A DNA stretch of 64,000 nucleotides from Candidatus Angelobacter sp. (lineage in GTDB: Bacteria > Acidobacteriota > Terriglobia > Terriglobales > Acidobacteriaceae), in assembly GCA_036380095.1 (NCBI GenBank), contig DASVFK010000250.1:24125-88124 (forward strand). The letters are read 5' to 3'. Shown here piece after piece: positions 13,546 through 26,343 of this stretch. Each line of letters starts with the position of its first letter. The stretch's first letter is position 1. The translations under genes and the position numbers were made by a program. Under the pieces are notes generated by a model. It was not told where the DNA came from. It did no database searches and saw nothing but the letters and a program-made list of their open reading frames with translations.

Positions 13546-15183
13546 GTGAGAGCAGGCAACTTGACCCCCAACCCTACCCAATCCACACCCAGACAGCTGT
13601 TGCGCGTGCGTGACTTGTGTGTCGATTATCGCTTTGCATCGGTTAAGGTTGCCGCCTTGCAAAACGTAGATCTGGAACTGGGCGAAGGCGAGAGTCTGGG
13701 CGTGTTGGGAGAATCCGGATCGGGCAAGAGTTCCCTGGCACATGCGTTGCTCCGTCTCTTGCCCTCCGATGCGTCCGTCTCCGGGCTGGTGCAATTCCGG
13801 GAAACGGATTTACTGAACGCCCGCGCGAAGACCTTGCGTGAAATCCGCGGCGCCGGGATTGCTTTGATTTCGCAGGAGCCGGCCCTGGCGCTGAACCCTG
13901 TACTGCCCATTGGGCGGCAGATTGGCGACGTACTTCGCGCCCACGAGTCGGTCAACCGTAGGCAGGAGCGAGATCGCGTGGCCGGTGCGCTGCGCGAAGT
14001 TGGTTTGACCGAGCCTGAGCGTATCATGCGCGCTTATCCTCACCAGCTCAGCGGGGGGCAAAGACAGCGCGCTGCCATTGCTCAGGCGCTGGTGTGCCGG
14101 CCGGCGCTCCTGATTGCCGATGAACCGCTCAGCTCGCTTGACACGGCCACGCAGGCTGAAGTTCTGGAGCTGCTGCGCACCCTGAAAGCGGAACTCAACC
14201 TGGCCATGATCTTCATCTCGCACAACGCTGGAGCGTTCTCCTCTTTGTGTGAGCGCGCGTTGGTGATGCGCAATGGCCGGGCTGTTGCTTGTGCTTCCCT
14301 CGAGGAACTCGCCGAGACCGCTGATCCTTACATCCGTGGATTGCTGTTTCCGGAGGCCGCTTTTTTAGACGGATGCAAGACACCAGCGTCGCAGCCTCAA
14401 GCCGGCCGGCCGCTGCTCGAAGTGCGGAGCGTGAGCAAGAGGTTCATGCAGCGCAGGGCGCTTTCACGCAGCAAGTTTGCTGTCCAGGCCCTGGAGCACA
14501 TCGATCTCAGCGTGGATGAGGGCGCCACGCTCGCGGTCATCGGACGCTCGGGTTCGGGAAAATCCACGCTGGCCCGCTGCATCGCCGGTTTTGAAAGTCC
14601 CGACTCGGGTGAAATCGTGCTAGCAGGCCGCAAGCACGAATCCAGCCCCCAGGTGCAGATGATTTTCCAGGACGTGGGCACGGCGCTGAACCCGCGCTTC
14701 ACTGCCGCAGAGGTGATCAGCGAACCGCTGGACATCGCGCGTAAGAACGATCCTTTGGAGCGCCGCAAGCGCGCCCTGGACCTGATGGAAGAGGTCGGCC
14801 TTGATCCCGACTGGCAGGCCCGCCCCTCGCACCAGTTCAGCGGCGGCCAGCGGCAGCGGCTGGCTCTGGCCCGGGCTTTAGCGGCTGGGCCAAAACTTCT
14901 GGTCCTTGACGAACCCTTTTCCGGACTCGACCTGGCCTTACAGGCGCAGATGTTGCGGCTTCTCCTGGAGGTCCAGGCGCGCCACCGTCTCACCTGCATT
15001 TGGATCGGCCACGATCTTAGCTTCCTTTCTTATTTTGCCCGTGATGTCGTCGTCATGGACCAGGGCCGGGTGGTGGAACACACGGCTCCACAAGGCCTGC
15101 GGAGCAGCACAGTGCCGGCAACGCGTTTGTTGGTGGAAGCCAGCGATCGGCTGCATGCCCCGGGCGTAGAGGCTGTGTCATGA
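13546..15183 (+). CDS. fused double-ATPase subunit of an Opp/Dpp-type (peptide/nickel family) ABC importer
   Basis: Two full ABC cassettes. Walker A motifs GESGSGKSS and GRSGSGKST, signatures LSGGQRQR and FSGGQRQR, Walker B motifs LLIADEP and LLVLDEP. Confidence 0.9.
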   Translation: MRAGNLTPNPTQSTPRQLLRVRDLCVDYRFASVKVAALQNVDLELGEGESLGVLGESGSGKSSLAHALLRLLPSDASVSGLVQFRETDLLNARAKTLREIRGAGIALISQEPALALNPVLPIGRQIGDVLRAHESVNRRQERDRVAGALREVGLTEPERIMRAYPHQLSGGQRQRAAIAQALVCRPALLIADEPLSSLDTATQAEVLELLRTLKAELNLAMIFISHNAGAFSSLCERALVMRNGRAVACASLEELAETADPYIRGLLFPEAAFLDGCKTPASQPQAGRPLLEVRSVSKRFMQRRALSRSKFAVQALEHIDLSVDEGATLAVIGRSGSGKSTLARCIAGFESPDSGEIVLAGRKHESSPQVQMIFQDVGTALNPRFTAAEVISEPLDIARKNDPLERRKRALDLMEEVGLDPDWQARPSHQFSGGQRQRLALARALAAGPKLLVLDEPFSGLDLALQAQMLRLLLEVQARHRLTCIWIGHDLSFLSYFARDVVVMDQGRVVEHTAPQGLRSSTVPATRLLVEASDRLHAPGVEAVS

Positions 15184-16136
15184 TTCGCTACTTCGGGCGC
15201 AGGCTGTTTCACGCCGTGCTGGTCTTGTTCGGCGTTTCGCTGCTGATGTTCCTCGTGCAGCAGGCCGCACCCGGAGATTTTCTGAGTGAAATGAGGTTGA
15301 ACCCCCAGATTTCCCCGCAAGCGTTGCACACCTTGCGGGCGCAATACGGCCTGGATCAGCCGCTGCCCCTGCGCTATGCGCACTGGCTCAGCTTTGTGGC
15401 CAGAGGTGAATTCGGGTATTCCTTTGCTTACGACATGCCTGCTTCCAAACTCCTGTGGCCGCGCGCGCGGAACACTCTGCTGCTCACTGTGCCGGCCCTT
15501 CTTATCTCCTGGCTGATCGCGGTGCCTTTGGGCGTACTGGCCGCGGCACAGCGTGGGACCTGGCTGGGCCGGCTGTTCTCCGGCGGAACATCTTTTCTGC
15601 TGGCTGTGCCGGACGTCTTGCTTGCTTTGCTGGCGTTGATGATCGCCTTGCGCACCGGACTGTTTCCAGTGGGCGGAATGAGGTCCGCAGACCCGTCTCA
15701 CGGGCGGCTGGCAGACCTGGCGTGGCACATGGTCTTGCCCGTCGGCACACTGGTGCTCGGATCATTGCCTGTCATTTTGCGTCACGTACGCGCCGCCGTC
15801 TCCGAAACGCTCAGTTCTTGTTATGTGCGCGCGGCTGAAGGCCATGGGTTGCGTCAGTTGCCGCTCTTGTTCCGGCACGCGTTGCCTGCGGCCGCCAATC
15901 CGCTGATTTCCTTGTTCGGCATTTCCATTGCTTTCCTTCTGAGCGTCTCGCTCCTGGTGGAGACGGTGATGAGCTGGCCGGGAATGGGGCCGCTTTTGTT
16001 GGAGTCGATCCTGGCTCGCGATCTATTTGTGGTGCTCGGGGCCACCATGCTCTCCACGTTGTTCCCGCTGGCGGGGAACTTGATCGCGGACGTCCTGCTG
16101 TATGGTTTCGACCCGCGTATCAGGATGGAACCATGA
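15180..16136 (+). CDS. ABC transporter permease (OppB/DppB-like)
   Basis: ATGA overlap with the ATPase stop. N-terminus MIRYFGRRLFHAVLVLFGVSLLMF is typical of OppB/DppB. Multiple TM helices. Confidence 0.85.
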   Translation: MIRYFGRRLFHAVLVLFGVSLLMFLVQQAAPGDFLSEMRLNPQISPQALHTLRAQYGLDQPLPLRYAHWLSFVARGEFGYSFAYDMPASKLLWPRARNTLLLTVPALLISWLIAVPLGVLAAAQRGTWLGRLFSGGTSFLLAVPDVLLALLALMIALRTGLFPVGGMRSADPSHGRLADLAWHMVLPVGTLVLGSLPVILRHVRAAVSETLSSCYVRAAEGHGLRQLPLLFRHALPAAANPLISLFGISIAFLLSVSLLVETVMSWPGMGPLLLESILARDLFVVLGATMLSTLFPLAGNLIADVLLYGFDPRIRMEP

Positions 16137-17161
16137 GACAACGTCACGTATTTTCCTGGGCGGCGTGGTTCCTCGTGACGGTCAATGCCGCCGCGCTTCT
16201 GGCCGGGTTCGTCGCTCCCTACAACTACGAAACGCAGGACCGGCTACGTCCTTATGCGCCTCCCACGCGTCTCCACTTGGTGGATTGTGAAGGCAAGTTT
16301 CACTTCTGGCCATTCGTGTATATGACCAGGCCCGGCGGGGAGAGTCTCACGGAGTACCAAGAAGACTGTGGCCAGCGGTTTCCGGTTCGTTTCTTTCTGA
16401 GCGGCGACGGTTATACCGTGCTGGGATTGTTTTCGGGGCACCGCCATCTTTTTGGAGTTGATCTGCCCGCGCGCATGTACCTGTTGGGAGGAGATGGCCT
16501 GGGGCGCGACCAGTTTTCCCGCATGCTCTATGGCGCGCAGGTGTCCTTGTTTGCCGGCGCGCTGGCGGCCTTGCTCGCCATGATGGGGGGACTGCTGGTT
16601 GGTTCCATCGCCGGCGTTTACGGCGGGGCAATTGACGACTTATGCATGCGCGTTACCGAGGTCATTATCGCAGTCCCGCCATTTTATGTTTTGCTCGCCG
16701 TACGGGCGTTTCTGCCGCTGCAAGTGAGCGCACCGGTCATGTTCCTGGAGATCGTGGCTGTGCTTGGTTTCGTGGCCTGGGGACGCCCCGCGCGGCTGGT
16801 GCGAGGCGTTGTTTTGGGCGCGCGCGAACGCAGCTTTGTTCTGGCGGCGCAGGGATTCGGCGCGTCGCGGGCGTATCTGCTGCGACGTCACCTGATGCCT
16901 TTGGCCATGAACGCGGCGCTTACGCAGATGGCTGTTTCCATTCCCCAAATCATTCTTGGGGAAGTGGTCATCTCCTTCCTGGGGCTGGGCATGAGCGAGC
17001 CCGTTCCCAGTTGGGGCAACATGCTGGCCCAGGCGCAGCAATACCACGTGCTGACGGCACATTGGTGGATGCTGCTTCCGGCGCTGGCCCTGGTTCCAGT
17101 GACCCTGGCGTACCAGGCCTTGGCCGATGTTCTAGGTTCACGCTTGCAATCTCGAATTTGA
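16133..17161 (+). CDS. ABC transporter permease (OppC/DppC-like)
   Basis: ATGA overlap with the preceding permease. It has the long periplasmic N-terminal loop typical of OppC, followed by BPD_transp_1-like helices (LGGDGLGRDQFSRMLYGAQVSL). Confidence 0.85.
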   Translation: MRQRHVFSWAAWFLVTVNAAALLAGFVAPYNYETQDRLRPYAPPTRLHLVDCEGKFHFWPFVYMTRPGGESLTEYQEDCGQRFPVRFFLSGDGYTVLGLFSGHRHLFGVDLPARMYLLGGDGLGRDQFSRMLYGAQVSLFAGALAALLAMMGGLLVGSIAGVYGGAIDDLCMRVTEVIIAVPPFYVLLAVRAFLPLQVSAPVMFLEIVAVLGFVAWGRPARLVRGVVLGARERSFVLAAQGFGASRAYLLRRHLMPLAMNAALTQMAVSIPQIILGEVVISFLGLGMSEPVPSWGNMLAQAQQYHVLTAHWWMLLPALALVPVTLAYQALADVLGSRLQSRI

Positions 17162-17176
17162 GCCGATGGGAGAAGC

Positions 17177-18934
17177 ATGACGACTTTCAAATACTCGCGT
17201 TTTGTTTCGGTCCTAGCCCTCCTGGTTGGTTGCTTGAGCCTTCCGGGATTCGGCGGGTTGGCTCCGCAAGAGGAGCTTCTGACCACCACGGCGGAACCGG
17301 GACGGCCGGGAGGACGTTTGGCTATCGGGGAGCCGTTCGAGCCCAAGACCTTGAACCCGCTCAACGCGGTGGACCAACCGTCGCTCGATGTCATCCGCCG
17401 CACCATGGCTGATTTGATCCATATCAACCGGGCCACGCTGAAAGCGGAGCCGGCACTGGCCAAGTCGTGGACGGCCACTCCCGACGGCAAGACCCTTACC
17501 TTGCAGCTTCGCCGCGGGATCCGTTTTTCGGATGGAGCTCCGTTTGACGCCGATGACGTAGTCTTCTCCTTCCAGGTCTATCTCGATGAGAAAGTGGCCG
17601 CGCCACAACGCGTTTTGTTGCTGATCGATGACAAGCCGATCAAGGTGGAAAAACTCGGGCAATACACGGTGCGGTTTTCGTTTTCCGCGCCTTACGCCGT
17701 GGGAGAAAGGGTCTTTGACAGCGTGCCCGTCCTGCCCCGCCATCTTTTGGAGAAGGAGTACCAGGAGGGCCGCATCAAGCAGGTATGGACGCTCAGCGCT
17801 TCGCCGGCCAGCATGGCGGGCCTGGGACCTTTCCGGCTGAAATCAGTCGCCCCCGGCGAGCGAGTCGTGCTGGAGCGTAATCCTTACTATTGGAAAGTGG
17901 ACAGCAAGGGCCAGCGGCTTCCTTACCTCGATGAATTGAGTTTCGTCATGGTGCCCAATACGGAAGCCCAGGTGATTCGATTCATGGCTGGCGACATTCA
18001 GGCAATCAGTCCCTTGAGCGCCGATGGCTACGCCTCCCTGGCTCCCGACCAGCAGAAACATCACTACAAACTGTACGACATGGGCGCGGGACTGGAATTC
18101 AATTTCCTATTTTTCAATCTCAATGAAGACACGGAAGGCCGGTTGCCGGAGGTCGCGCGCAAGCAAGCCTGGTTCAGAGACGTACGCTTTCGCCAGGCGG
18201 TCTCGCGCGCCATCGACCGGCAGGCGATCGCCCGGCTGGCATACCACAACCGGGCCACACCGCTGGTAACCCATGTGACGCCGGGAGACAAGCTGTGGTT
18301 CGATTCCTCCCTCGCTGCGCCCTCGCAATCGCTGCCGGAAGCGCGGCGGCTCTTGCAGCAAGCCGGCTTTTCCTGGAAGCCGGACGGGGCGCTGGTTGAC
18401 TCCCATGGCACGCGCGTGAGTTTCAGCATTCTGGCCAACTCGGGCAACGCCCAGCAGACGCAAAGCGCAACCTTGATCCAAAGCGACCTAAGCAAGCTGG
18501 GGATGGACGTGCACGTTGTTACGCTGGAGTTCCGTGCCACCGTGGACCGCATCCTGCAGTCCCATGATTACGACGTCGCCGTGATGCGCATGGCCAATGG
18601 TGACGCCGATCCCAATCCCGTGATGGGCATTCTCACCTCGGAGGGCTCCACGCATGTGTGGAGCATGGGGGAAAAGAAACCGCCCCAGTGGCAGTTGGAA
18701 ATCGACCGCCTGATGCAGCAGCAGATGATCACGCTGGACTTTCGCAAGCGCAAGAAACTCTATGATCAAGTGCAGCAGATCCTGGCGCGCGAAGTCCCGG
18801 CCCTTTTTCTGGTGAGCCCCAATATCCTGGTGGCGGCCCGGGAAAATCTCGCCAATGTGCGTCCCGCTATAATGGACAACTACATTCTGTGGAATTCAGA
18901 CGAACTGTTTTGGCGCACCCCCGCCGGAAAATAA
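17177..18934 (+). CDS. ABC transporter substrate-binding protein, family 5 (peptide/nickel)
   Basis: Signal peptide or lipoprotein-like N-terminus. Size of 585 aa and motifs (LNPLNAVDQPS..., ERNPYYW) are typical of SBP_bac_5. It is the last gene of the transporter block. Confidence 0.85.
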   Translation: MTTFKYSRFVSVLALLVGCLSLPGFGGLAPQEELLTTTAEPGRPGGRLAIGEPFEPKTLNPLNAVDQPSLDVIRRTMADLIHINRATLKAEPALAKSWTATPDGKTLTLQLRRGIRFSDGAPFDADDVVFSFQVYLDEKVAAPQRVLLLIDDKPIKVEKLGQYTVRFSFSAPYAVGERVFDSVPVLPRHLLEKEYQEGRIKQVWTLSASPASMAGLGPFRLKSVAPGERVVLERNPYYWKVDSKGQRLPYLDELSFVMVPNTEAQVIRFMAGDIQAISPLSADGYASLAPDQQKHHYKLYDMGAGLEFNFLFFNLNEDTEGRLPEVARKQAWFRDVRFRQAVSRAIDRQAIARLAYHNRATPLVTHVTPGDKLWFDSSLAAPSQSLPEARRLLQQAGFSWKPDGALVDSHGTRVSFSILANSGNAQQTQSATLIQSDLSKLGMDVHVVTLEFRATVDRILQSHDYDVAVMRMANGDADPNPVMGILTSEGSTHVWSMGEKKPPQWQLEIDRLMQQQMITLDFRKRKKLYDQVQQILAREVPALFLVSPNILVAARENLANVRPAIMDNYILWNSDELFWRTPAGK

Positions 18935-18941
18935 AAAGTGA

Positions 18942-19538
18942 ATGGACGACAACGCCAAGAGCATTACTTTGCCAGCGCCAAAGGAAATTGAGGCCGAAGA
19001 CGAAAGGCTGGTCCAGGATTGCCTGAAAGGGGACGAAAAGGCATGGAACCGCCTGATCGACAAATACAAGCGGTTGATCTATTCGGTCCCGGTCAAATAC
19101 GGCGTTGCTCCGGAAGACGCAGCCGACATCTTTCAGAACGTCTGTGTCGACCTGTTCACCAACCTTTCCAAGCTGAGAAAAATTGAGTCGCTGCGGTCCT
19201 GGCTCATTACCGTGGCCACGCACAAGTGTTTCCATCACAAAAGGCAGCAGCGGCAGGACGTTGAACTGGACGCGATGGAGCAGGAAGTGGCGGAAGATCT
19301 GGCGCCGGCGGCCGAGACGGTGCTCCACGAAGTGCAGGAAGAGCAGGCCATACGCGACGCCCTGGCGCGGCTCACGCCTCGCTGTGCGGAACTGGTGAAG
19401 ATGCTGTTCTATGAACAGCCGCCGGTGCCCTATACCGAAGTTGCCCAGAGACTCGGCCTGGCCACCGGGTCCATCGGATTCATCCGCGGGCGATGTCTCA
19501 ACCGGCTGCAAAAGATTCTGGCGGAGCTGGGGTTCTAG
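18942..19538 (+). CDS. ECF-type sigma-70 family RNA polymerase sigma factor
   Basis: Region 2 (RLIYSVPVKYGVAPEDAADIFQNVCVDLF) and a region 4 HTH (YTEVAQRLGLATGSIGFIRGRCLNRL). It starts 7 nt after the SBP stop. Confidence 0.85.
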   Translation: MDDNAKSITLPAPKEIEAEDERLVQDCLKGDEKAWNRLIDKYKRLIYSVPVKYGVAPEDAADIFQNVCVDLFTNLSKLRKIESLRSWLITVATHKCFHHKRQQRQDVELDAMEQEVAEDLAPAAETVLHEVQEEQAIRDALARLTPRCAELVKMLFYEQPPVPYTEVAQRLGLATGSIGFIRGRCLNRLQKILAELGF

Positions 19539-22397
19539 ATGTCGCAGGTTGGTACATTTGCGCCGGAACCGTGGATTTCCGAACTCTCGGCAATTAGCGA
19601 AGAGCAGGGACGCCGGGAGTTCTTGTCACGCCAGGCCCACCGCCAAAGCGAAAAATCGCTGCAGGCGCTGCTGGATGGCGTGGCCACGTTTGCCCGCTTC
19701 GATGTGCCCAAGGCAGAGCGCCTGTCCCAGGCCCTGGCTTGGATCGCCACAGAAAGCGGCGACCCCTATGCTCTGGCGCAAAGCCGGCGGGCCTCTGGTC
19801 ATGTGCATTACCTCAACGGCAGATACCGGCAGGGAATCGAGGAGTACGAAAAGGCCATCCAGGAATTGGACCGTTTGGGGCGTCACGTGGAGGCCGCGAG
19901 CACGATCAGCGCCGCCCTCATATGCTTGATCTACGACGGGCAGTACGACCGCGCCTATCAGCTCGGCAAAAAGGCCCGCGAGGCGTTCCAGGCGGCTGGG
20001 GACCGACACCGCCTGGCCAGGCTTGATAGCAACCTGGCCAACGTCTATTACCGACAAGACCGCTTTCAGGAGGCGGGCGCGCTGTTTGAGCGCGCCTATA
20101 GCGAACTTCTTGAAGTGGGAGACCCACTGGACATCGCGGTGGTCCTGCGCAATATGGCGGTCTGCTACATCAGCCTGAACGAGTTTGCGCAAGCGCAGGA
20201 AACCTATCAGTTGGCCCGCCAGCACTCGGAAAGACATGGTTTTTCCCAACTGGTCGCCGAATCCGATTACAACATCGCCTACCTGCACTATCTGCGCGGC
20301 GAATACTTGCGCGCCATCGAGATGTACGACCAGACGCGGGTGCGCTGTAAGCAGCTCGGCGACAAGTACCACCAGGCCCTGTGTGACCTTGACCAGTCGG
20401 AGATTTATCTGGAGTTGAACCTGACTGAGGGGGGCATCGAACTGGCGCAAGATGCTTTTGCCGCTTTCAGCGACCTGGGGATGCGCTATGAGGCGGCCAA
20501 AGCGGCCACGTTCTCCGCCATCGCGGTCAGCCAGCAGGGGCATTATCGCCAGGCCCTGCAGATTTTCGACCGTGCCCGGGAGCTGTTTATCAATGAGCAG
20601 AACCAGCTCTGGCCGGCGCTGATCGATCTCTACAAGGCACTGGTGCTTTACGAAGCCGGCGACAATGACTCGGCGGAAGACCTTGCTTTGTCCGCCCTGG
20701 AATACTTCGCTCCCTCTTACCTGCCGGCCAAAGCCGCTTTATGCGAACTGTTGCTGGCTGCCATCGAATTGCGCAGCTCCGATGCCGACGAGGCGCGGCG
20801 ATACTGCAGCTCCGCCCTGGCCCGCTTGCTGCACATCGAGTCCCCTGCCACCTACCAGGCGTATTTCATGCTGGGCCAGGCCGAGGAAGCCAGCCGTAAC
20901 ACTGAGCTGGCGCGCCAGGCCTATGAGAAGGCCTATCAGAAGCTGGAGGACCTGCGCAGCCACCTGGGCAAGGAAGAGCTGAAGATCGCGTTTCTCAAGA
21001 ACAAACTCACGGTTTATGAAAGCCTTGTCCTAACATCGCTGGCGGTCCATTCGCGCACCTGCACGGAGCACGATACGTTCCAGTACATCGAACAGGCAAA
21101 ATCACGCAGCCTGGCTGACCTGATTGCCTTCCGTGCGTCTTCGCTCAACGCCAGGAACCTTGAGCATGCTCCCGCCATGGCCCAGTTTCGCGAGCTGCGC
21201 CAGAAACTGAACTGGACCTACCATGAAATCGAATTGCAGGAATTGGGCCAGGAAGGCGGTTCGCAGGACCGCATCCGGCAATTGCGCCTGCAAAGCCGGG
21301 AGTACGAAGACGCTCTGGTCAAGTCCTTCTCCCAATTGCAGAGCGTTGACTATGAGCTCGCCAGCCTGCAAAGCGCCAGCACCGTCTCTGCGCGCGAGCT
21401 GCAAAAGATTCTGCCTCCTGACTCGATGCTGGTGGAGTATTACGTTGCCCGTGACCGGTTCTACGTTTGCCTAGTCTCCCGAGACCGCCTCAAGGTACTG
21501 CCGGTGGCGGACGCCGTCCCGGTACGGGAAAAGCTTCGACTTCTGCAATTGCAGTTGGCGAAATTCCGCCTGGGAGACGAGTACATCCGGCCGCTGGAGA
21601 AGCGCTTGTTGCAGGCGACGCGGGCGCACCTTGAGGAACTCTACGAGTTGCTGATCGCCCCCATCCGTGGGCAGCTCGAGGCCCATCACCTCATCATTGT
21701 GCCCCACACGTTTCTGCACTACCTGCCCTTCCATGCCCTGTCTGACGGAAAACGGCATCTGATTGACGATTTTTCCATCTCCTACGCACCCAGCGGGAGC
21801 ATTTTTGCCGCGTGCCAAGGCAAGGAACATGCCAGCCAGAGCGGCTTGGTGCTGGCCATCCCGGACGCCCGTGCTCCATACATTGAAGAGGAAGGTCGGC
21901 TGGTGGCAGACGCCATGGGCGGGGCAAGTTTGTTCCTGGGTGAGGATGCTACCGAGGAACGCTTGCGCAGCCTGGGACCGCAGAGCCGGTTCATCCACAT
22001 TGCCACGCATGGATATTTTCGTGAGGACAATCCCATGTTCTCTTCCATTCGGCTGGGGAATTCTCTTCTGAGCCTATTTGACCTGTATCAGTTACAGCTA
22101 AACGCTGAGCTGGTGACCTTGAGCGGTTGTGGCACGGGAATGAATGTTGTGGTGGGCGGCGATGAACTGATCGGCCTGGTGCGGGGTTTGCTCTATGCTG
22201 GGGCGCAAACCCTGATGGTGAGCTTGTGGGAGGTGCACGATCAGAGTACGGCCGAGTTCATGCGCGATTTCTATACCTTGTATGGTGGAGTCCAGAACAA
22301 GGCGGAAGCCCTTCGCCAGGCTGCGCTCAGACTGCGCGAAACCCACCCACATCCGTATTATTGGGCGGCCTTCGCCCTGGTTGGGAAGTTTATGTAA
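19539..22397 (+). CDS. TPR-repeat CHAT-domain (caspase-like peptidase) protein
   Basis: Its ATG directly abuts the sigma-factor TAG (TAGATG). The N-terminal two-thirds is TPR-like. The C-terminal CHAT domain has the His/Cys dyad context FIHIATHGYF ... LVTLSGCGTG. Confidence 0.85.
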   Translation: MSQVGTFAPEPWISELSAISEEQGRREFLSRQAHRQSEKSLQALLDGVATFARFDVPKAERLSQALAWIATESGDPYALAQSRRASGHVHYLNGRYRQGIEEYEKAIQELDRLGRHVEAASTISAALICLIYDGQYDRAYQLGKKAREAFQAAGDRHRLARLDSNLANVYYRQDRFQEAGALFERAYSELLEVGDPLDIAVVLRNMAVCYISLNEFAQAQETYQLARQHSERHGFSQLVAESDYNIAYLHYLRGEYLRAIEMYDQTRVRCKQLGDKYHQALCDLDQSEIYLELNLTEGGIELAQDAFAAFSDLGMRYEAAKAATFSAIAVSQQGHYRQALQIFDRARELFINEQNQLWPALIDLYKALVLYEAGDNDSAEDLALSALEYFAPSYLPAKAALCELLLAAIELRSSDADEARRYCSSALARLLHIESPATYQAYFMLGQAEEASRNTELARQAYEKAYQKLEDLRSHLGKEELKIAFLKNKLTVYESLVLTSLAVHSRTCTEHDTFQYIEQAKSRSLADLIAFRASSLNARNLEHAPAMAQFRELRQKLNWTYHEIELQELGQEGGSQDRIRQLRLQSREYEDALVKSFSQLQSVDYELASLQSASTVSARELQKILPPDSMLVEYYVARDRFYVCLVSRDRLKVLPVADAVPVREKLRLLQLQLAKFRLGDEYIRPLEKRLLQATRAHLEELYELLIAPIRGQLEAHHLIIVPHTFLHYLPFHALSDGKRHLIDDFSISYAPSGSIFAACQGKEHASQSGLVLAIPDARAPYIEEEGRLVADAMGGASLFLGEDATEERLRSLGPQSRFIHIATHGYFREDNPMFSSIRLGNSLLSLFDLYQLQLNAELVTLSGCGTGMNVVVGGDELIGLVRGLLYAGAQTLMVSLWEVHDQSTAEFMRDFYTLYGGVQNKAEALRQAALRLRETHPHPYYWAAFALVGKFM

Positions 22398-22401
22398 AGA
22401 T

Positions 22402-22412
22402 TTGTAAATATT
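22402..22412 (+). promoter_or_regulatory. AT-rich motif TTGTAAATATT (copy 1), upstream of the anti-sigma-like gene
   Basis: The identical 11-mer recurs at 24792..24802 upstream of the second S8 peptidase. Both lie in AT-rich islands within GC-rich DNA. Function not established. Confidence 0.3.
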
Positions 22413-22549
22413 AGAGCAGGTATATTTTTTACCCTGGTTCTGACTCTTTATGTACAGAAGCAGGCTCATCCGTCGACTGCTAAAGAGGGGAGCATGGACC
22501 CGGAAGCCGTGTTCCCCTCGTAAACAAAAGAGACGAAGAAAAACGATTT

Positions 22550-23185
22550 ATGCCTCAAGCCGCGCGCCATTTCGACATTACCGAGTGGGCTGATTATGCC
22601 AGGAAGACGGCATCTCCCGAGCAGCAAAGCGAGATGGCGTCTCACCTGAAGGCTGGATGCCCGAAGTGCGAAAAGATCGAGCAATTATTGACGAAATTCA
22701 TTGCAGTCTGCGCGCGTGAGAGCGCGTATGAATTACCTCGACACGCAGAGCGGTCAGTGAAGGCGCTGGCGGGTCTGGGAAAACCCGAGCGTCGCTCGAC
22801 GTTCGAGCGGCTGTGGGGCACCTTGATATTTGATAGCTCGAATGCCCCGCTGCCGGTGGGTGTCCGCGGATCTCATCAAATCAGCCGGCATGTGCTGTTT
22901 CATGCGGGCGATTACTCCGTTGATCTGCGATTTGAGCATGAAAGAGGTTCGGCCAGTATGGTGCTCGTGGGACAGATTGCCAACCAGAAGTCGCCCGAAG
23001 AGGCGATGTGCAATCTGCCAGTGATCCTGCTGGCGGGTGAGCGGGAAGTGTCGCGCTCCATTAGCAATTCCTACGGAGAGTTCCAGATGGAATATGTTCC
23101 GGACAGCGATCTGCGCCTGTTGGTTCCCCTTGAGTCAACCGGCCAGGAGCTCGAGGTATTGCTGGGCAAGACGCCGCAAGCCTGA
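22550..23185 (+). CDS. soluble anti-sigma-factor-like protein (zf-HC2-like N-terminus, beta-sandwich C-terminus)
   Basis: The N-terminal HLKAGCPKCEKIEQL resembles the H-x3-C-x2-C anti-sigma zinc motif, with one extra residue. There is no TM helix. The C-terminal part resembles carboxypeptidase-regulatory-like folds (GEFQMEYVPDSDLRLLV). Confidence 0.45.
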   Translation: MPQAARHFDITEWADYARKTASPEQQSEMASHLKAGCPKCEKIEQLLTKFIAVCARESAYELPRHAERSVKALAGLGKPERRSTFERLWGTLIFDSSNAPLPVGVRGSHQISRHVLFHAGDYSVDLRFEHERGSASMVLVGQIANQKSPEEAMCNLPVILLAGEREVSRSISNSYGEFQMEYVPDSDLRLLVPLESTGQELEVLLGKTPQA

Positions 23186-23224
23186 TTTTTGTAGGGGCCA
23201 ATTTGAACAACTGAGACGTCGACT

Positions 23225-24637
23225 ATGAGGACACTGCGTCTGCTGTGCATTACCGGTCTTGTGTTTGCGCTCGGCCTGCCTGTGGCCGCGCAGAGCACTT
23301 TTGTTCTAACCGTTGCGCCCGCTAATGCCCAGACGGTCCTCACCAGCCACGGTCTTACTGTCATCAAAGAGATCCATGATGGCGCAAACTGCGTCTATCT
23401 GGTACGTTCCGCTTCCGCCGATGTAGCCAGCGTTGAAACGGAAGTTGAAAAAGACCTCTTGGTCGCCGGCTTTGAGCCCGAGCAAAGTATTGGTCTGCCG
23501 GAGCTCAGTGGGGCCACTCAGTCAAATCTTACGCAAGCCACCGCTACGGTCACGGGCACCCTGCCCGGGCGTACGCTGGTCACCTTCTTCGGAAGCACAG
23601 TTCCCAGCAATTACACCAGCCAGGCGGCCACCAGCATCGTTCGCTTGGATGATGCCCGCAACGCTACTCATCTCACGGGCGCGGGGACGGTGGCGATCAT
23701 CGATACCGGGGCAGATCCGAACCATCCAGCGTTGGCTGGCGTTTTCGTAGGCGGATACGACTTTACCCGCGACACAATTGGATTTTCAGAGCTTGCGGAC
23801 CTGGATCCAAACACGGCCGCTGCTCTGCAGCAGTCGATTTCGCCTATCCTTGGCTCGCAGAACGTTTACATTCTTAATCCATACACTGCCGCCATCCTGG
23901 ACCAGTCGATCTCGCCCATCCTGGGACAATCGATTTCGCCGATTCTCGGCGGCACCGGTGATTTTGGCCACGGCACCATGGTGGCAGGCGTGGTCCACCT
24001 GGTAGCGCCCACCGCCAAGATCATGCCCTTGAAGGCATTTCGCGCCGATGGAACATCGAATCTTTCCGATATCATTAACGCCGTCTATTACGCTGCGGAC
24101 AACGGGGCCAACGTCATCAGCATGAGCTTCAGCATGCCGCAGTCTTCCCCTGGGCTTCAGACTGCGATCCAGTACGCCCTCAACAAGAACATTGCCGTTG
24201 TCGCCGCCTCCGGCAATGACGGGCAGAAGACCCTGGTTTTCCCGGCAAGCTACGGCGGCGTGCAGGGAATCGGCTCCACGGACTCCAACGACGCGAGAAG
24301 CACGTTCTCCAATTACGGCTCTGGCGTGACGGCTTTTGCGGCCCCGGGCGAAGCCGTAATTACCACTTTCCCAGGCGGCTATTACGCCGCAGGCTGGGGT
24401 ACTTCCTTCAGCGCTCCCATGTTCGCCGGCGCAGCTTCCCTCGTGCTCCAGGCACGTCCATTGAGCAAGCCGGGAGATGTAACCAACGCTCTTTCAAAGA
24501 CCAAGCAGGTAAGCGATATGGGTTATGGCCGCATTGACCTCTACCAGTCGCTTACGAACTTGTTTAGTGGCAGCACGAGCACCAGCGGTGGCAGCGGGAC
24601 CAGCGGCAGCAATACCAGCGGCTCCTCCAAACCATAA
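23225..24637 (+). CDS. secreted S8 family serine peptidase (subtilase) with I9-like propeptide
   Basis: Signal peptide. Catalytic contexts VAIIDTGAD (Asp), GHGTMVAG (His), ASGNDG (Asn) and GTSFSAPMFAG (Ser). Three QSISPILG repeats lie between Asp and His. Gly/Ser/Thr-rich tail. Confidence 0.9.
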   Translation: MRTLRLLCITGLVFALGLPVAAQSTFVLTVAPANAQTVLTSHGLTVIKEIHDGANCVYLVRSASADVASVETEVEKDLLVAGFEPEQSIGLPELSGATQSNLTQATATVTGTLPGRTLVTFFGSTVPSNYTSQAATSIVRLDDARNATHLTGAGTVAIIDTGADPNHPALAGVFVGGYDFTRDTIGFSELADLDPNTAAALQQSISPILGSQNVYILNPYTAAILDQSISPILGQSISPILGGTGDFGHGTMVAGVVHLVAPTAKIMPLKAFRADGTSNLSDIINAVYYAADNGANVISMSFSMPQSSPGLQTAIQYALNKNIAVVAASGNDGQKTLVFPASYGGVQGIGSTDSNDARSTFSNYGSGVTAFAAPGEAVITTFPGGYYAAGWGTSFSAPMFAGAASLVLQARPLSKPGDVTNALSKTKQVSDMGYGRIDLYQSLTNLFSGSTSTSGGSGTSGSNTSGSSKP

Positions 24638-24642
24638 TCCCG

Positions 24643-24668
24643 TCAAGGATTCGGCCTTGGTTTTTTTA
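24643..24668 (+). terminator. rho-independent terminator (TCAAGG-ATTCGG-CCTTGG + T7)
   Basis: Short GC stem followed by TTTTTTT, starting 6 nt after the S8 stop codon. Confidence 0.6.
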
Positions 24669-24791
24669 TTAAGCCCTCTTAATCCTTGCACCTCTTAATC
24701 TGCCAAGAAATGAACTTCAGACCAACGAATGTTGCACGAAACCTTCGCCCTGTGAGCACCTGCCCAGCTTGCCTTTGTCTGATTTAAGTTA

Positions 24792-24802
24792 TTGTAAATA
24801 TT
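24792..24802 (+). promoter_or_regulatory. AT-rich motif TTGTAAATATT (copy 2), upstream of the second S8 peptidase
   Basis: Identical 11-mer to 22402..22412. Followed by GTATTTATATATG. Confidence 0.3.
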
Positions 24803-25008
24803 GTATTTATATATGAATCAGGGGATTCATCCCTGGGCTTAAGGATGGTCCGGGATGAGTCCAACCGTTAGCTTGAATAAATTTGCTCTAACAAAAGCGT
24901 ATTTCTCGTGGCTATACTGACCACCTATTATTCAGCAACACTGACTTTCGCAACGAAATACGAGGAGCCAGGTGTCGTCGACGGAAACGACCACCCGGAG
25001 TTGGAGAG

Positions 25009-26343
25009 ATGGCTAAAGGACGGATTACCGGTCGAACACTCTGCTTGTTCCTGCTTTTGCTGGGACTTCCCCTGATGGCCGAGGACAAGTATGTCCTGGT
25101 TACGTCGCCATCCAAGGTACAGGACGTTTGCAGCCGTCACGGGTTGCAGCCGGTTTCCCAGCTTTCCAGCAGTTCATCAGCAGGTGTTTTTCTTGTTTCC
25201 ACGGCATCGATTGATCCCACTCTCGCCACAGATTCTGATGTACAGAGCTTTGAGCTTAATCGAACAGTGGGCGTGCCGGAGCTTTCCGGGCTTACCGTCT
25301 CCAGCCTGACGCAGTCCATTTCGCCCATTCTGGGCCAGTTGCCAGGGCGGCAAGCGGTGTCCTACTTCGGGGCATCCGTCGCCAACTATTACGTAACGCA
25401 GCCTGCGAGTTCCATCACACGATTGGCAGATGCCCAATCCGCATCCAGCCTTATCGGTACGGGAATTACGGTAGCCATAGTCGATACAGGCGTGGACCTT
25501 GATCATCCTGCATTGCAGGGCGTGCTGGTGAGTGGTTACGACTTTGTGAAGAACGGCGCGCTGGTATCTGAGGTAGCGGACCTGGGCCCGAACGCGGCCG
25601 GCTTGACCCAGTCGATCAGTCCCATCCTGGGCGGGGTCAATGTGGTGCAATTGAATGCATCCACGGCGGCGATCCTGAGCCAGGCGGCGGAAGACGCGCT
25701 GGGTACTCCGCCTGCGGCCTTCGGCCACGGTACCATGACGGCCGGCGTGGTGCACCTGATAGCTCCGGGCTCGAAGATCATGCCGCTCAAGGCATTTGCC
25801 GCTGACGGCAGCTCTGACCTGTTCAACATCCTGCGCGCGATCTATTACGCCGTGGACCATGGCGCCACCGTGATCAGCATGAGCTTTGAGATTTCCCAGA
25901 GCTCTCCGGCGCTGCAGAATGCGATCCAGTATGCGCTGAGCAAGAACGTTGTCCTGGTGGCGGCCTCCGGTAATGACGCCCAGCAGATCATGGTCTATCC
26001 CGCTGGATACAACAACGTAATCGGCGTGGGATCAACCAGTAACACCGATGGTAAGAGTGACTTTACCAATTTCGGAACCAATGCCACTTTTGTGGCGGCT
26101 CCAGGCGAAGGCGTGATTACCACTTATCCCGGAGGCAACTATGCCGCCGGCTGGGGAACTTCATTCAGCACTCCGCTGGTGGCCGGTGAAGCTGCGTTGA
26201 TCTTGCAAGCAAGACCTGCCTACCATCCTGGGGACGTTGCCAATGCGGTTTCCAGGGGTGTCCAGGTGCAGCAGATGGGTCACGGACGCGTAGATATTTG
26301 CCAGGCGATCTCGAGCCTGGGGAACGGCCTTAAATGCCAGTAA
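25009..26343 (+). CDS. secreted S8 family serine peptidase (subtilase), paralog of 23225..24637
   Basis: Signal peptide. Catalytic contexts VAIVDTGVD, GHGTMTAG, ASGNDA and GTSFSTPLVAG. Two QSISPILG motifs: one in the propeptide region and one between Asp and His. Confidence 0.9.
   Translation: MAKGRITGRTLCLFLLLLGLPLMAEDKYVLVTSPSKVQDVCSRHGLQPVSQLSSSSSAGVFLVSTASIDPTLATDSDVQSFELNRTVGVPELSGLTVSSLTQSISPILGQLPGRQAVSYFGASVANYYVTQPASSITRLADAQSASSLIGTGITVAIVDTGVDLDHPALQGVLVSGYDFVKNGALVSEVADLGPNAAGLTQSISPILGGVNVVQLNASTAAILSQAAEDALGTPPAAFGHGTMTAGVVHLIAPGSKIMPLKAFAADGSSDLFNILRAIYYAVDHGATVISMSFEISQSSPALQNAIQYALSKNVVLVAASGNDAQQIMVYPAGYNNVIGVGSTSNTDGKSDFTNFGTNATFVAAPGEGVITTYPGGNYAAGWGTSFSTPLVAGEAALILQARPAYHPGDVANAVSRGVQVQQMGHGRVDICQAISSLGNGLKCQ

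Follow-up and report, generated by a model that had tools for sequence, protein, structure and literature searches.

Could a bacterium outside the Firmicutes export a peptide within its own proteases, take it up again and read it with a cytoplasmic tetratricopeptide repeat (TPR) receptor? This question is raised by nine genes from Candidatus Angelobacter sp., all located on the + strand, which fill positions 13546-26343 of a 64,000-nt stretch of contig DASVFK010000250.1 (hereafter the window, to which all positions refer). A circuit of this kind was the original prediction for this DNA, and the parts that it listed, an importer, a TPR-CHAT protein, a sigma factor of the extracytoplasmic function (ECF) class, an anti-sigma-like protein and two peptide-bearing subtilases, were all found, on the + strand. 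We propose that the block encodes a self-peptide signalling module, and we give the full mechanism a probability of about one in two.

Octapeptide copies in the two subtilases

The last two genes of the block, subtilase 1 (23225-24637, +) and subtilase 2 (25009-26343, +), code for proteins with a signal-peptide-like N-terminus that match Pfam Peptidase_S8 with E-values of 8e-36 and 4e-37, respectively. Their lengths are 444-470 aa, and the catalytic Asp-His-Ser triad is in the subtilisin order, with D160, H249 and S394 invariant across 37 sequences. The octapeptide QSISPILG occurs in them exactly five times. In subtilase 1, the three copies (23831-23854, 23903-23926 and 23927-23950, the last two in tandem) belong to an inserted stretch that separates the catalytic Asp from the His; in subtilase 2, one copy (25312-25335) forms the junction between the propeptide and the mature domain and the other (25609-25632) lies in the Asp-His insert. 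A six-frame search of the whole 5.6-Mb assembly found no QSISPILG outside these two genes, and neither a further subtilase of this family nor a second homologue of the 211-aa anti-sigma-like protein was detected in the genome.

Related loci were collected by a scan of one genome per species, which gave 37 acidobacterial loci, and by a metagenome scan, which gave ~60 more contigs. Thousands of homologues of subtilase 1, at 70-85% identity, carry 3-5 identical copies of an octapeptide. The typical subtilase 1 has one copy at the junction (...LTQSxxxILD|TLPGR) and three in an Asp-His insert of ~55 residues, the last two in tandem, and the typical subtilase 2 has one junction copy and two insert copies. 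In every genome examined the octapeptide of subtilase 2 is that of subtilase 1, and all 5-7 copies of a genome are alike over two paralogues that are themselves only ~53% identical (53% in the window). Between genomes, more than 20 peptide types were found, including QSTTSILD, QSSTSILD, QSNTSILD, QSTATILD, QSTTTILD, QSISPILG, QSMSPILT and QSTSGILE, with a final residue that varies (D, G, T, N or E). Near-copies with one or two mismatches were absent from 218 of the 231 proteins that have at least two copies.

At the DNA level these copies are far from identical. The 853 within-genome copy pairs differ on average by 5.7 of 24 nt, and three pairs only are identical in DNA. Both serine codon families, AGY and TCN, are used for the same peptide serine in 40 of 55 loci, in a pattern that is specific to the copy and common to orthologues, which implies that Ser replaced Thr (ACC) by separate routes, one ending in AGC and the other in TCC. 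This divergence and the mixed serine codons show that selection keeps the copies alike, and gene conversion was ruled out as the source of their identity. Judged from the codons, it is parallel substitution under selection that drove each copy to the same sequence.

In the AlphaFold2 model of subtilase 1 (predicted local distance difference test score, pLDDT, of 80) the propeptide and the catalytic domain are confident; the loops in which it places the repeats (residues 100-114 and 205-244) score below 50.

Some copies depart from this pattern. In the subclade of the window the junction copy of subtilase 1 reads QATATVTG, and in four QSNTSILD loci (L006, L007, L084 and L070) the junction of subtilase 2 reads QSSGSVLD, QSAGSVLD or QSATSVLD; taken together, these variants indicate that the junction copy is the one most often freed from the identity constraint. 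We observed also that residues 449-470 of subtilase 1, and the corresponding part of its orthologues, form a tail rich in Ser, Gly and Thr that often reads ...SGxSKP, and that subtilase 2 and its orthologues have a C-terminal Cys-x12-Cys loop. These tails may be sorting or anchoring signals.

Co-variation of the octapeptide with the TPR domain

The TPR-CHAT protein (952 aa, cytoplasmic; 19539-22397, +) matches Pfam CHAT with an E-value of 3e-65 and TPR_12. The main new result of the analysis is that, in comparisons of aligned sequences, residues 41-240 of its TPR domain (19659-20258, +) are the only segment that clearly tracks the peptide type. In the clade shared by QSSTSILD and QSTTSILD loci, 16 columns of the TPR-CHAT alignment split the two types, all within residues 5-354. 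They include columns 62, 111, 113, 145, 163, 171, 182, 188, 193, 211 and 217, with for example L/M at 62, Y/F at 171, C/Y at 193, I/Y at 211 and P/D at 217. The same comparison gave no discriminating column in the solute-binding protein, the ECF sigma factor, the 211-aa protein, permease 2, the CHAT domain or the subtilases outside the repeats; permease 1 gave one (5 versus 4 loci) and the ATPase 14 (6 versus 2 loci), from too few sequences to count.

In the tree of TPR residues 41-240, the eight QSSTSILD loci form one clade with a support of 100/99.9. Approximately unbiased (AU) tests reject this grouping within the same protein, for its CHAT domain (p=0.012), and also for the 211-aa protein (p=0.016), the binding protein (p=0.011), permease 2 (p=0.016), subtilase 2 outside the repeats (p=0.021) and two flanking genes (p=3e-5 and 3e-7); it is not rejected for TPR residues 241-560, for subtilase 1 or for the sigma factor (p=0.07). 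The trees of the flanks contain well-supported sister pairs with different peptides. Peptide type and TPR island thus go together, with DNA of another history between and around them, as expected of co-adapted alleles. Metagenome contigs may mix sequence from several strains, a possible source of discordance, but such mosaics would not create the perfect association of TPR and peptide. Sliding nucleotide identity between loci of different type showed no clean recombination breakpoints, the genomes being too diverged (70-90%) for them.

Divergence pointed to the same segment. In a sliding window at matched CHAT-domain divergence, the ratio of different-peptide to same-peptide divergence was 1.9-3.3 at TPR residues 121-240 and ~1.0 in the sigma factor, the 211-aa protein and the remainder of TPR-CHAT. 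Pairs that did not overlap, taken from several clades and peptide types, gave for TPR residues 81-240 relative to the rest of the protein ratios of 0.97-1.68 when the peptides differ and 0.53-1.39 when they are the same (Mann-Whitney p=0.0023). Relative to the CHAT domain, the same pairs showed excess divergence of this segment when the peptides differ (p=0.004) and none for the binding protein, the sigma factor, the 211-aa protein, the permease or the subtilase catalytic domains, for which no co-variation with peptide type was found.

Single residues could be followed across the peptide switches. Residues 193 and 217 change in 5/7 and 6/7 switches, respectively, and in 0/8 same-peptide pairs, and Leu62 is replaced in both of the independent lineages with Ser at peptide position 3 (Ser3), by Met in one and by Ile in the other. 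Several co-varying residues occupy equivalent helix positions (62, 143 and 182; 171 and 211; 113 and 193), which fits a stripe along the modelled TPR superhelix. Octapeptide and TPR domain are specifically coupled in evolution, as predicted by a TPR receptor for the peptide, which supports the peptide sensor that had been proposed for this protein. It is likely that the TPR domain recognises the octapeptide.

The conserved block and its proposed circuit

We found the whole block kept in ~60 Terriglobia loci, down to 40-50% identity, and every sufficiently long locus contains the ATPase or ATPases, two permeases, the binding protein, the sigma factor, TPR-CHAT, the 211-aa protein and one or more subtilases. 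Close relatives, in records named Candidatus Angelobacter or Terriglobia, have the same gene order and two subtilases. Records of Bryobacteraceae, Acidobacteriaceae and Sulfotelmatobacter, at 40-50% identity, have a single subtilase, often located 5' of the ABC (ATP-binding cassette) genes, and two separate ATPases in place of the one ATPase gene, with the importer-sigma-CHAT-211-aa core retained. A core kept despite such rearrangement indicates a functional unit that includes the importer, and the grouping of importer, sigma factor, TPR-CHAT, anti-sigma-like protein and subtilase as one unit is thus borne out as a conserved module. In a sample of the family of the window, the subtilase is present in 73 of 401 genomes, spread over 37 of 142 genera, and in all five other genomes of the genus. 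The related loci all come from Terriglobia/Acidobacteriota records, with one contig labelled Actinomycetota.

The importer opens the block. Its first gene (13546-15183, +; Pfam ABC_tran twice) codes for a fused double ABC ATPase of the YejF/DppD-DppF-like type, for which the top NCBIfam match is YejF with 398 bits, under the cut-off of 834. The two permease genes (15180-16136 and 16133-17161, +; Pfam BPD_transp_1, BPD_transp_1_N and OppC_N) have overlapping start and stop codons, and in all complete loci the permeases adjoin the sigma and CHAT genes. The family-5 solute-binding protein of the Opp/Dpp/Nik class (17177-18934, +; Pfam SBP_bac_5, E=4e-83) is probably a lipoprotein, as judged from a lipobox-like N-terminus (LLVGC). 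The order thus differs from the one that the original prediction had implied, with the ATPase gene leading the importer and the binding protein coming last. The nearest solved relatives of the binding protein, SPH1118 and AppA (E about 1e-36), are remote and their ligands varied. The Opp importer of RRNPP systems is unspecific, so that the missing peptide-type signal in the binding protein does not contradict import of the octapeptide, which this importer would carry out.

The sigma gene (18942-19538, +; Sigma70_r2/r4, TIGR02937) starts 7 nt past the stop codon of the binding protein, and its own stop codon abuts the start of TPR-CHAT. The identity of the sigma factor among close relatives is ~80%. 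Two ECF sigma paralogues are located elsewhere in the assembly, at C145:2772-3317 (61% identical) and C273:5416-5961 (51% identical), and at least nine other genes with a CHAT domain are present in the same genome.

The AlphaFold2 model of TPR-CHAT (pLDDT 81) showed ~10 helical hairpins of 40 aa at residues 56-450 and, C-terminal to this array, a caspase-like CHAT domain at residues 696-950. The residues taken as the catalytic His-Cys dyad, H824 and C864, do not vary in the alignment. The top fold matches are Csx29 (E=4e-15), separase and DdvA, and for the TPR part the peptide-binding TPR of LGN.

The 211-aa protein (22550-23185, +) is soluble, and the sequence from the window has no Pfam match. 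Across 29 homologues H7, H32, C37 and C40 are invariant. This N-terminal set of zinc ligands is ChrR-like with one extra residue before the first Cys, giving H-x4-C-x2-C as compared with the H-x3-C-x2-C of zinc-binding anti-sigma (ZAS)-type factors, in which a further His or Cys ligand lies upstream of the motif. The zf-HC2 model matches 2 of the 29 members (best E=0.005), and profile matches to anti-sigma factors are weak: RsiW (5wuq) with E=0.025 and RslA (3hug) with E=0.22. The C-terminal half is a CarboxypepD_reg-like beta-sandwich, and CarboxypepD_reg itself matches some members; this half probably accounts for the 'carboxypeptidase' listed in ECF54-type contexts. On these ligands and matches the 211-aa protein is an anti-sigma-like protein, a candidate zinc-finger factor of the ZAS type. 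It is reasonable by analogy to expect the CHAT domain to cleave it, because Csx29 cleaves Csx30 and DdvA fuses TPR-CHAT with an anti-sigma domain.

In the circuit that we propose, the two subtilases would be exported by the Sec pathway with the genome-specific octapeptide, here QSISPILG, held in flexible junction and insert loops. Proteolysis, most likely by the subtilases themselves, would free the octapeptide, and cutting tandem copies at equivalent points would yield exactly one free octapeptide. The dedicated Opp/Yej-type ABC importer, presumably co-transcribed with the regulators, would take it into the cytoplasm, where the N-terminal TPR superhelix would bind it through allele-specific contacts in residues of about 41-240. 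Binding would switch the caspase-like CHAT domain, which would then cut the soluble zinc-finger anti-sigma-like protein and so alter how active the ECF sigma factor is, whose gene lies directly upstream of that of TPR-CHAT. The sigma factor probably drives the anti-sigma and subtilase genes, which would close a feedback loop. We infer, in this scheme, the release of the peptide, its import, the direction of the CHAT switch, the CHAT substrate and the sigma regulon. From the circuit first drawn for this DNA, the conserved module and the coupling of TPR and octapeptide stand; the AT-rich motif was not borne out as a conserved promoter element.

A more specific form of the circuit is pherotype-diversified, kin-discriminating signalling between cells of a Gram-negative soil phylum, with a pheromone taken from a public-good enzyme, re-imported, read by TPR-CHAT and answered by release of the ECF sigma factor. 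We put this form forward tentatively, as possible rather than probable. Strains would, if it is true, tie the production of proteases to the presence of their own kind.

Several observations weigh against peptide signalling. The strongest TPR signal is one main bipartition between Ser3 and Thr3 peptides, a single event in the TPR tree; the QSSTSILD clade was chosen after a first look at the tree; and the flank tree gives 2-4 independent contrasts, all concordant, a number with which a sign test cannot reach significance. Divergence of the binding protein is not raised when the peptide type differs, and nickel, sugars and opines are among the other cargoes of family-5 binding proteins. In the subclade of the window, 2 of 7 repeat positions are decayed (the subtilase 1 junction and the second insert copy of subtilase 2), and distant relatives hold one or two copies only. 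The host is a diderm, in which the subtilases would have to be exported past the periplasm and an 8-mer would have to re-enter.

Much of the same evidence could be read as cytoplasmic sensing of the precursor, with the TPR domain reading the octapeptide in unfolded, unexported subtilase and reporting a secretion backlog or the rate of synthesis to the sigma factor. Co-variation of TPR and peptide would then follow without release or re-import, the missing peptide-type signal in the binding protein would fit, and TPR-CHAT has no signal peptide and the repeats lie in disordered segments that a precursor would expose. The importer would be linked only through the uptake of peptides that the proteases make from environmental protein, yet the invariant core of the locus is importer-sigma-CHAT, with coupled reading frames, while the subtilase gene moves. 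Tandem copies would be of no obvious use. Moreover, the repeated switches of type between close relatives, parallel in up to seven copies, look like diversifying selection, and a diversifying signal exposed to other cells is not expected of a housekeeping feedback. We consider this reading improbable.

The repeats could instead be elements of subtilase maturation or autoinhibition, such as cleavage sites or pseudo-substrate strands, with the TPR association due to linkage or chance. The tail of a subtilisin propeptide lies in the active site, one copy is located exactly at the pro/mature junction, and a single protease specificity would suit the same sequence at all sites. When the peptide differs, however, neither subtilase has extra divergence in its catalytic domain (p=0.37 and 0.93), and the subtilases have no discriminating column outside the repeats. 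A fixed cleavage site would hardly be expected to vary in its last residue (D, G, T, N, E), and the subtilase 1 junction copy is decayed in the subclade of the window with the insert copies still identical. This reading would also leave unexplained why the signal of the TPR island survives across intervening genes that are discordant. A role in maturation or autoinhibition is unlikely to be the explanation.

Least credible is an ordinary protein-foraging operon, in which the genes would simply be neighbours, TPR-CHAT would sense something unrelated and peptide identity would come from homogenisation of repeats: family-5 ABC importers and S8 proteases are common in nutrient acquisition, and ECF groups with CHAT, subtilase and carboxypeptidase-like neighbours are already listed without a mechanism (ECF54; PMC8999054), but synonymous differences close to saturation and the use of both serine codon families contradict homogenisation by gene conversion, and a localised TPR island signal is not expected.

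Related systems and candidate regulatory DNA

Sensing of peptide pheromones by cytoplasmic TPR receptors is considered a speciality of the Firmicutes and of the phages that infect them. The logic of the proposed circuit is that of the RRNPP(A) quorum sensing of Firmicutes (Rap, NprR, PlcR, PrgX and AimR; PMC10075063, PMC9765709): a precursor is exported and processed outside the cell to a short peptide, an ABC-type oligopeptide system imports the product and a cytoplasmic TPR receptor senses it directly, with peptide and receptor diversifying together into specificity types. The parts differ. Here the peptide is embedded in subtilases of 444-470 aa, in 3+2 copies (up to 4+3 in relatives), instead of a small secreted propeptide of tens of residues whose gene adjoins that of the receptor, and the six-frame search of the 5.6-Mb assembly found no small open reading frame carrying QSISPILG. 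The TPR array is N-terminal (56-450) and followed by a C-terminal CHAT domain, as opposed to the N-terminal helix-turn-helix or Rap-type effector and C-terminal TPR of RRNPP receptors; an N-terminal TPR disqualifies a candidate in RRNPP_detector (PMC10075063), and no RRNPP receptor family was among the Pfam or NCBIfam matches. The output here would be an ECF sigma/anti-sigma-like pair, with a dedicated importer in the same operon, and the host belongs to the Acidobacteriota, which are diderm, whereas RRNPP systems are those of Firmicutes and their mobile elements. The label 'RRNPP-like' that the block had been given thus holds as an analogy of logic and fails for the propeptide gene, for receptor architecture and homology, and for the phylum.

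The proposed output resembles two other systems. In Craspase of type III-E CRISPR systems, activated Csx29, a TPR-CHAT protein, cleaves Csx30, the partner of the ECF-type CASP-sigma (RpoE) (PMC10028731; 8eey, 7y8t). What the two share is a TPR-CHAT protease that has a His-Cys dyad and whose gene accompanies those of an ECF-type sigma factor and a small partner. Craspase is activated by target RNA, whereas the activator proposed here is a peptide bound to the TPR domain, and the partner, ZAS-like zinc finger plus CarboxypepD_reg-like, is likened to Csx30 by role alone. No Cas7-11/gRAMP or CRISPR array was found in the locus and no cas gene in the block or its conserved neighbours, and the NCBIfam Csx29 match is partial with a score of 53 for a cut-off of 300. 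Because of the missing Cas7-11 and of this low score the module is not a Craspase. In the DdvA-DdvS system of Myxococcus xanthus, TPR-CHAT and a zinc-finger anti-sigma domain control an ECF sigma factor, with CHAT cleavage as the proposed trigger (PMC11506125; 8rot, 8rw5). DdvA is a single polypeptide in which the anti-sigma domain is joined through a membrane helix to a TPR-CHAT in the periplasm, and its signal is phage-related, whereas the present module has two distinct soluble proteins, TPR-CHAT and the anti-sigma-like one, linked to an importer and subtilases.

The neighbourhood also fits the context described for ECF54 (Huang et al. 2015; Casas-Pastor et al. 2021), to which it is likened by context and not by a group model. 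As summarised in PMC8999054, ECF54 has no recognised anti-sigma factor and has CHAT, subtilase and carboxypeptidase-type neighbours, from which context alone regulation by proteolysis was proposed. That group was defined in Actinobacteria, and an importer, a repeated peptide and TPR co-variation are not reported for it in the accessible literature. By analogy, the module works like a splice of an RRNPP-type input with a Craspase- or DdvA-type output.

A literature search found, in the papers that it covered, no description of a multi-copy signal inside the catalytic domain of a secreted protease, and nothing joining TPR-CHAT with an oligopeptide or RRNPP with Acidobacteria; the module points to a previously undescribed peptide-signalling circuit controlling a sigma factor. 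Several identical pheromone copies in one exported precursor, freed by the subtilisin-like Kex2, are found in the yeast alpha-factor, with the difference that in the present module the protease doubles as the precursor and has the copies inside its catalytic domain, and that reception would be intracellular. If the proposed circuit is true, the same logic evolved independently, from unrelated parts, in the Acidobacteria, an abundant and poorly understood soil phylum; TPR-CHAT proteases gain a peptide input beside the RNA-guided activation of Craspase; and an ECF-type context listed as 'regulated by proteolysis?' gains a candidate anti-sigma factor and a mechanism. The coding sequence of the signal would lie within that of an enzyme whose synthesis the signal may govern. 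Together with the TPR alleles, which match wherever they could be compared, the more than 20 peptide types form a natural allelic series that is a ready specificity map and could be used for orthogonal peptide-to-transcription switches.

The intergenic DNA of the block was also compared. A leader of 152 nt separates the TPR-CHAT gene from the 211-aa gene, and within it 65 nt (22455-22519, +) are near-invariant in 23 loci while the flanking intergenic DNA varies. This segment forms two hairpins, AGCAG-N13-CTGCT and then GGGGAACAyG-loop-CrTGTTCCCC, the second stem being changed on both sides in some relatives. No Rfam family matches the leader, and the Rfam search of the block gave terminator-like chance matches only. 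The conserved segment could be a regulatory RNA or a protein-binding site.

The AT-rich upstream motif of the original prediction is present as the 11-mer TTGTAAATATT, at 22402 and 24792, and its two copies are statistically unusual in the window (0.18 expected). It is absent from the orthologous positions of relatives, the closest one included, and was ruled out on this ground as a conserved promoter element. Because of this lack of conservation, the shared 11-mer is weak evidence for a common promoter. No k-mers common to the two leaders were found, and a conserved TATACT-type element and a further conserved leader precede subtilase 2.

Palindromes and a hairpin were also observed around subtilase 2. 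Just past the stop codon of subtilase 1, relatives have TTTATTAGCAAGTCTAATT, an ATTAG-N5-CTAAT palindrome (for example at about 11450 of locus L003), and at the orthologous site the window carries TTATTAAGCCCTCTTAATCC, a TTAAG-N4-CTTAA palindrome (24660-24690). This palindrome 3' of subtilase 1 may be an operator upstream of subtilase 2. The hairpin GGTGTCGT-CGACGGAA-ACGACCACC is located at 24969-24993, ~15 nt before the start of subtilase 2. Its loop CGACGGAA is kept, with different stems, in one clade of relatives, and another clade has GTTCGACGGAT, which is the ATCCGTCGA core of the 211-aa gene leader in reverse complement.

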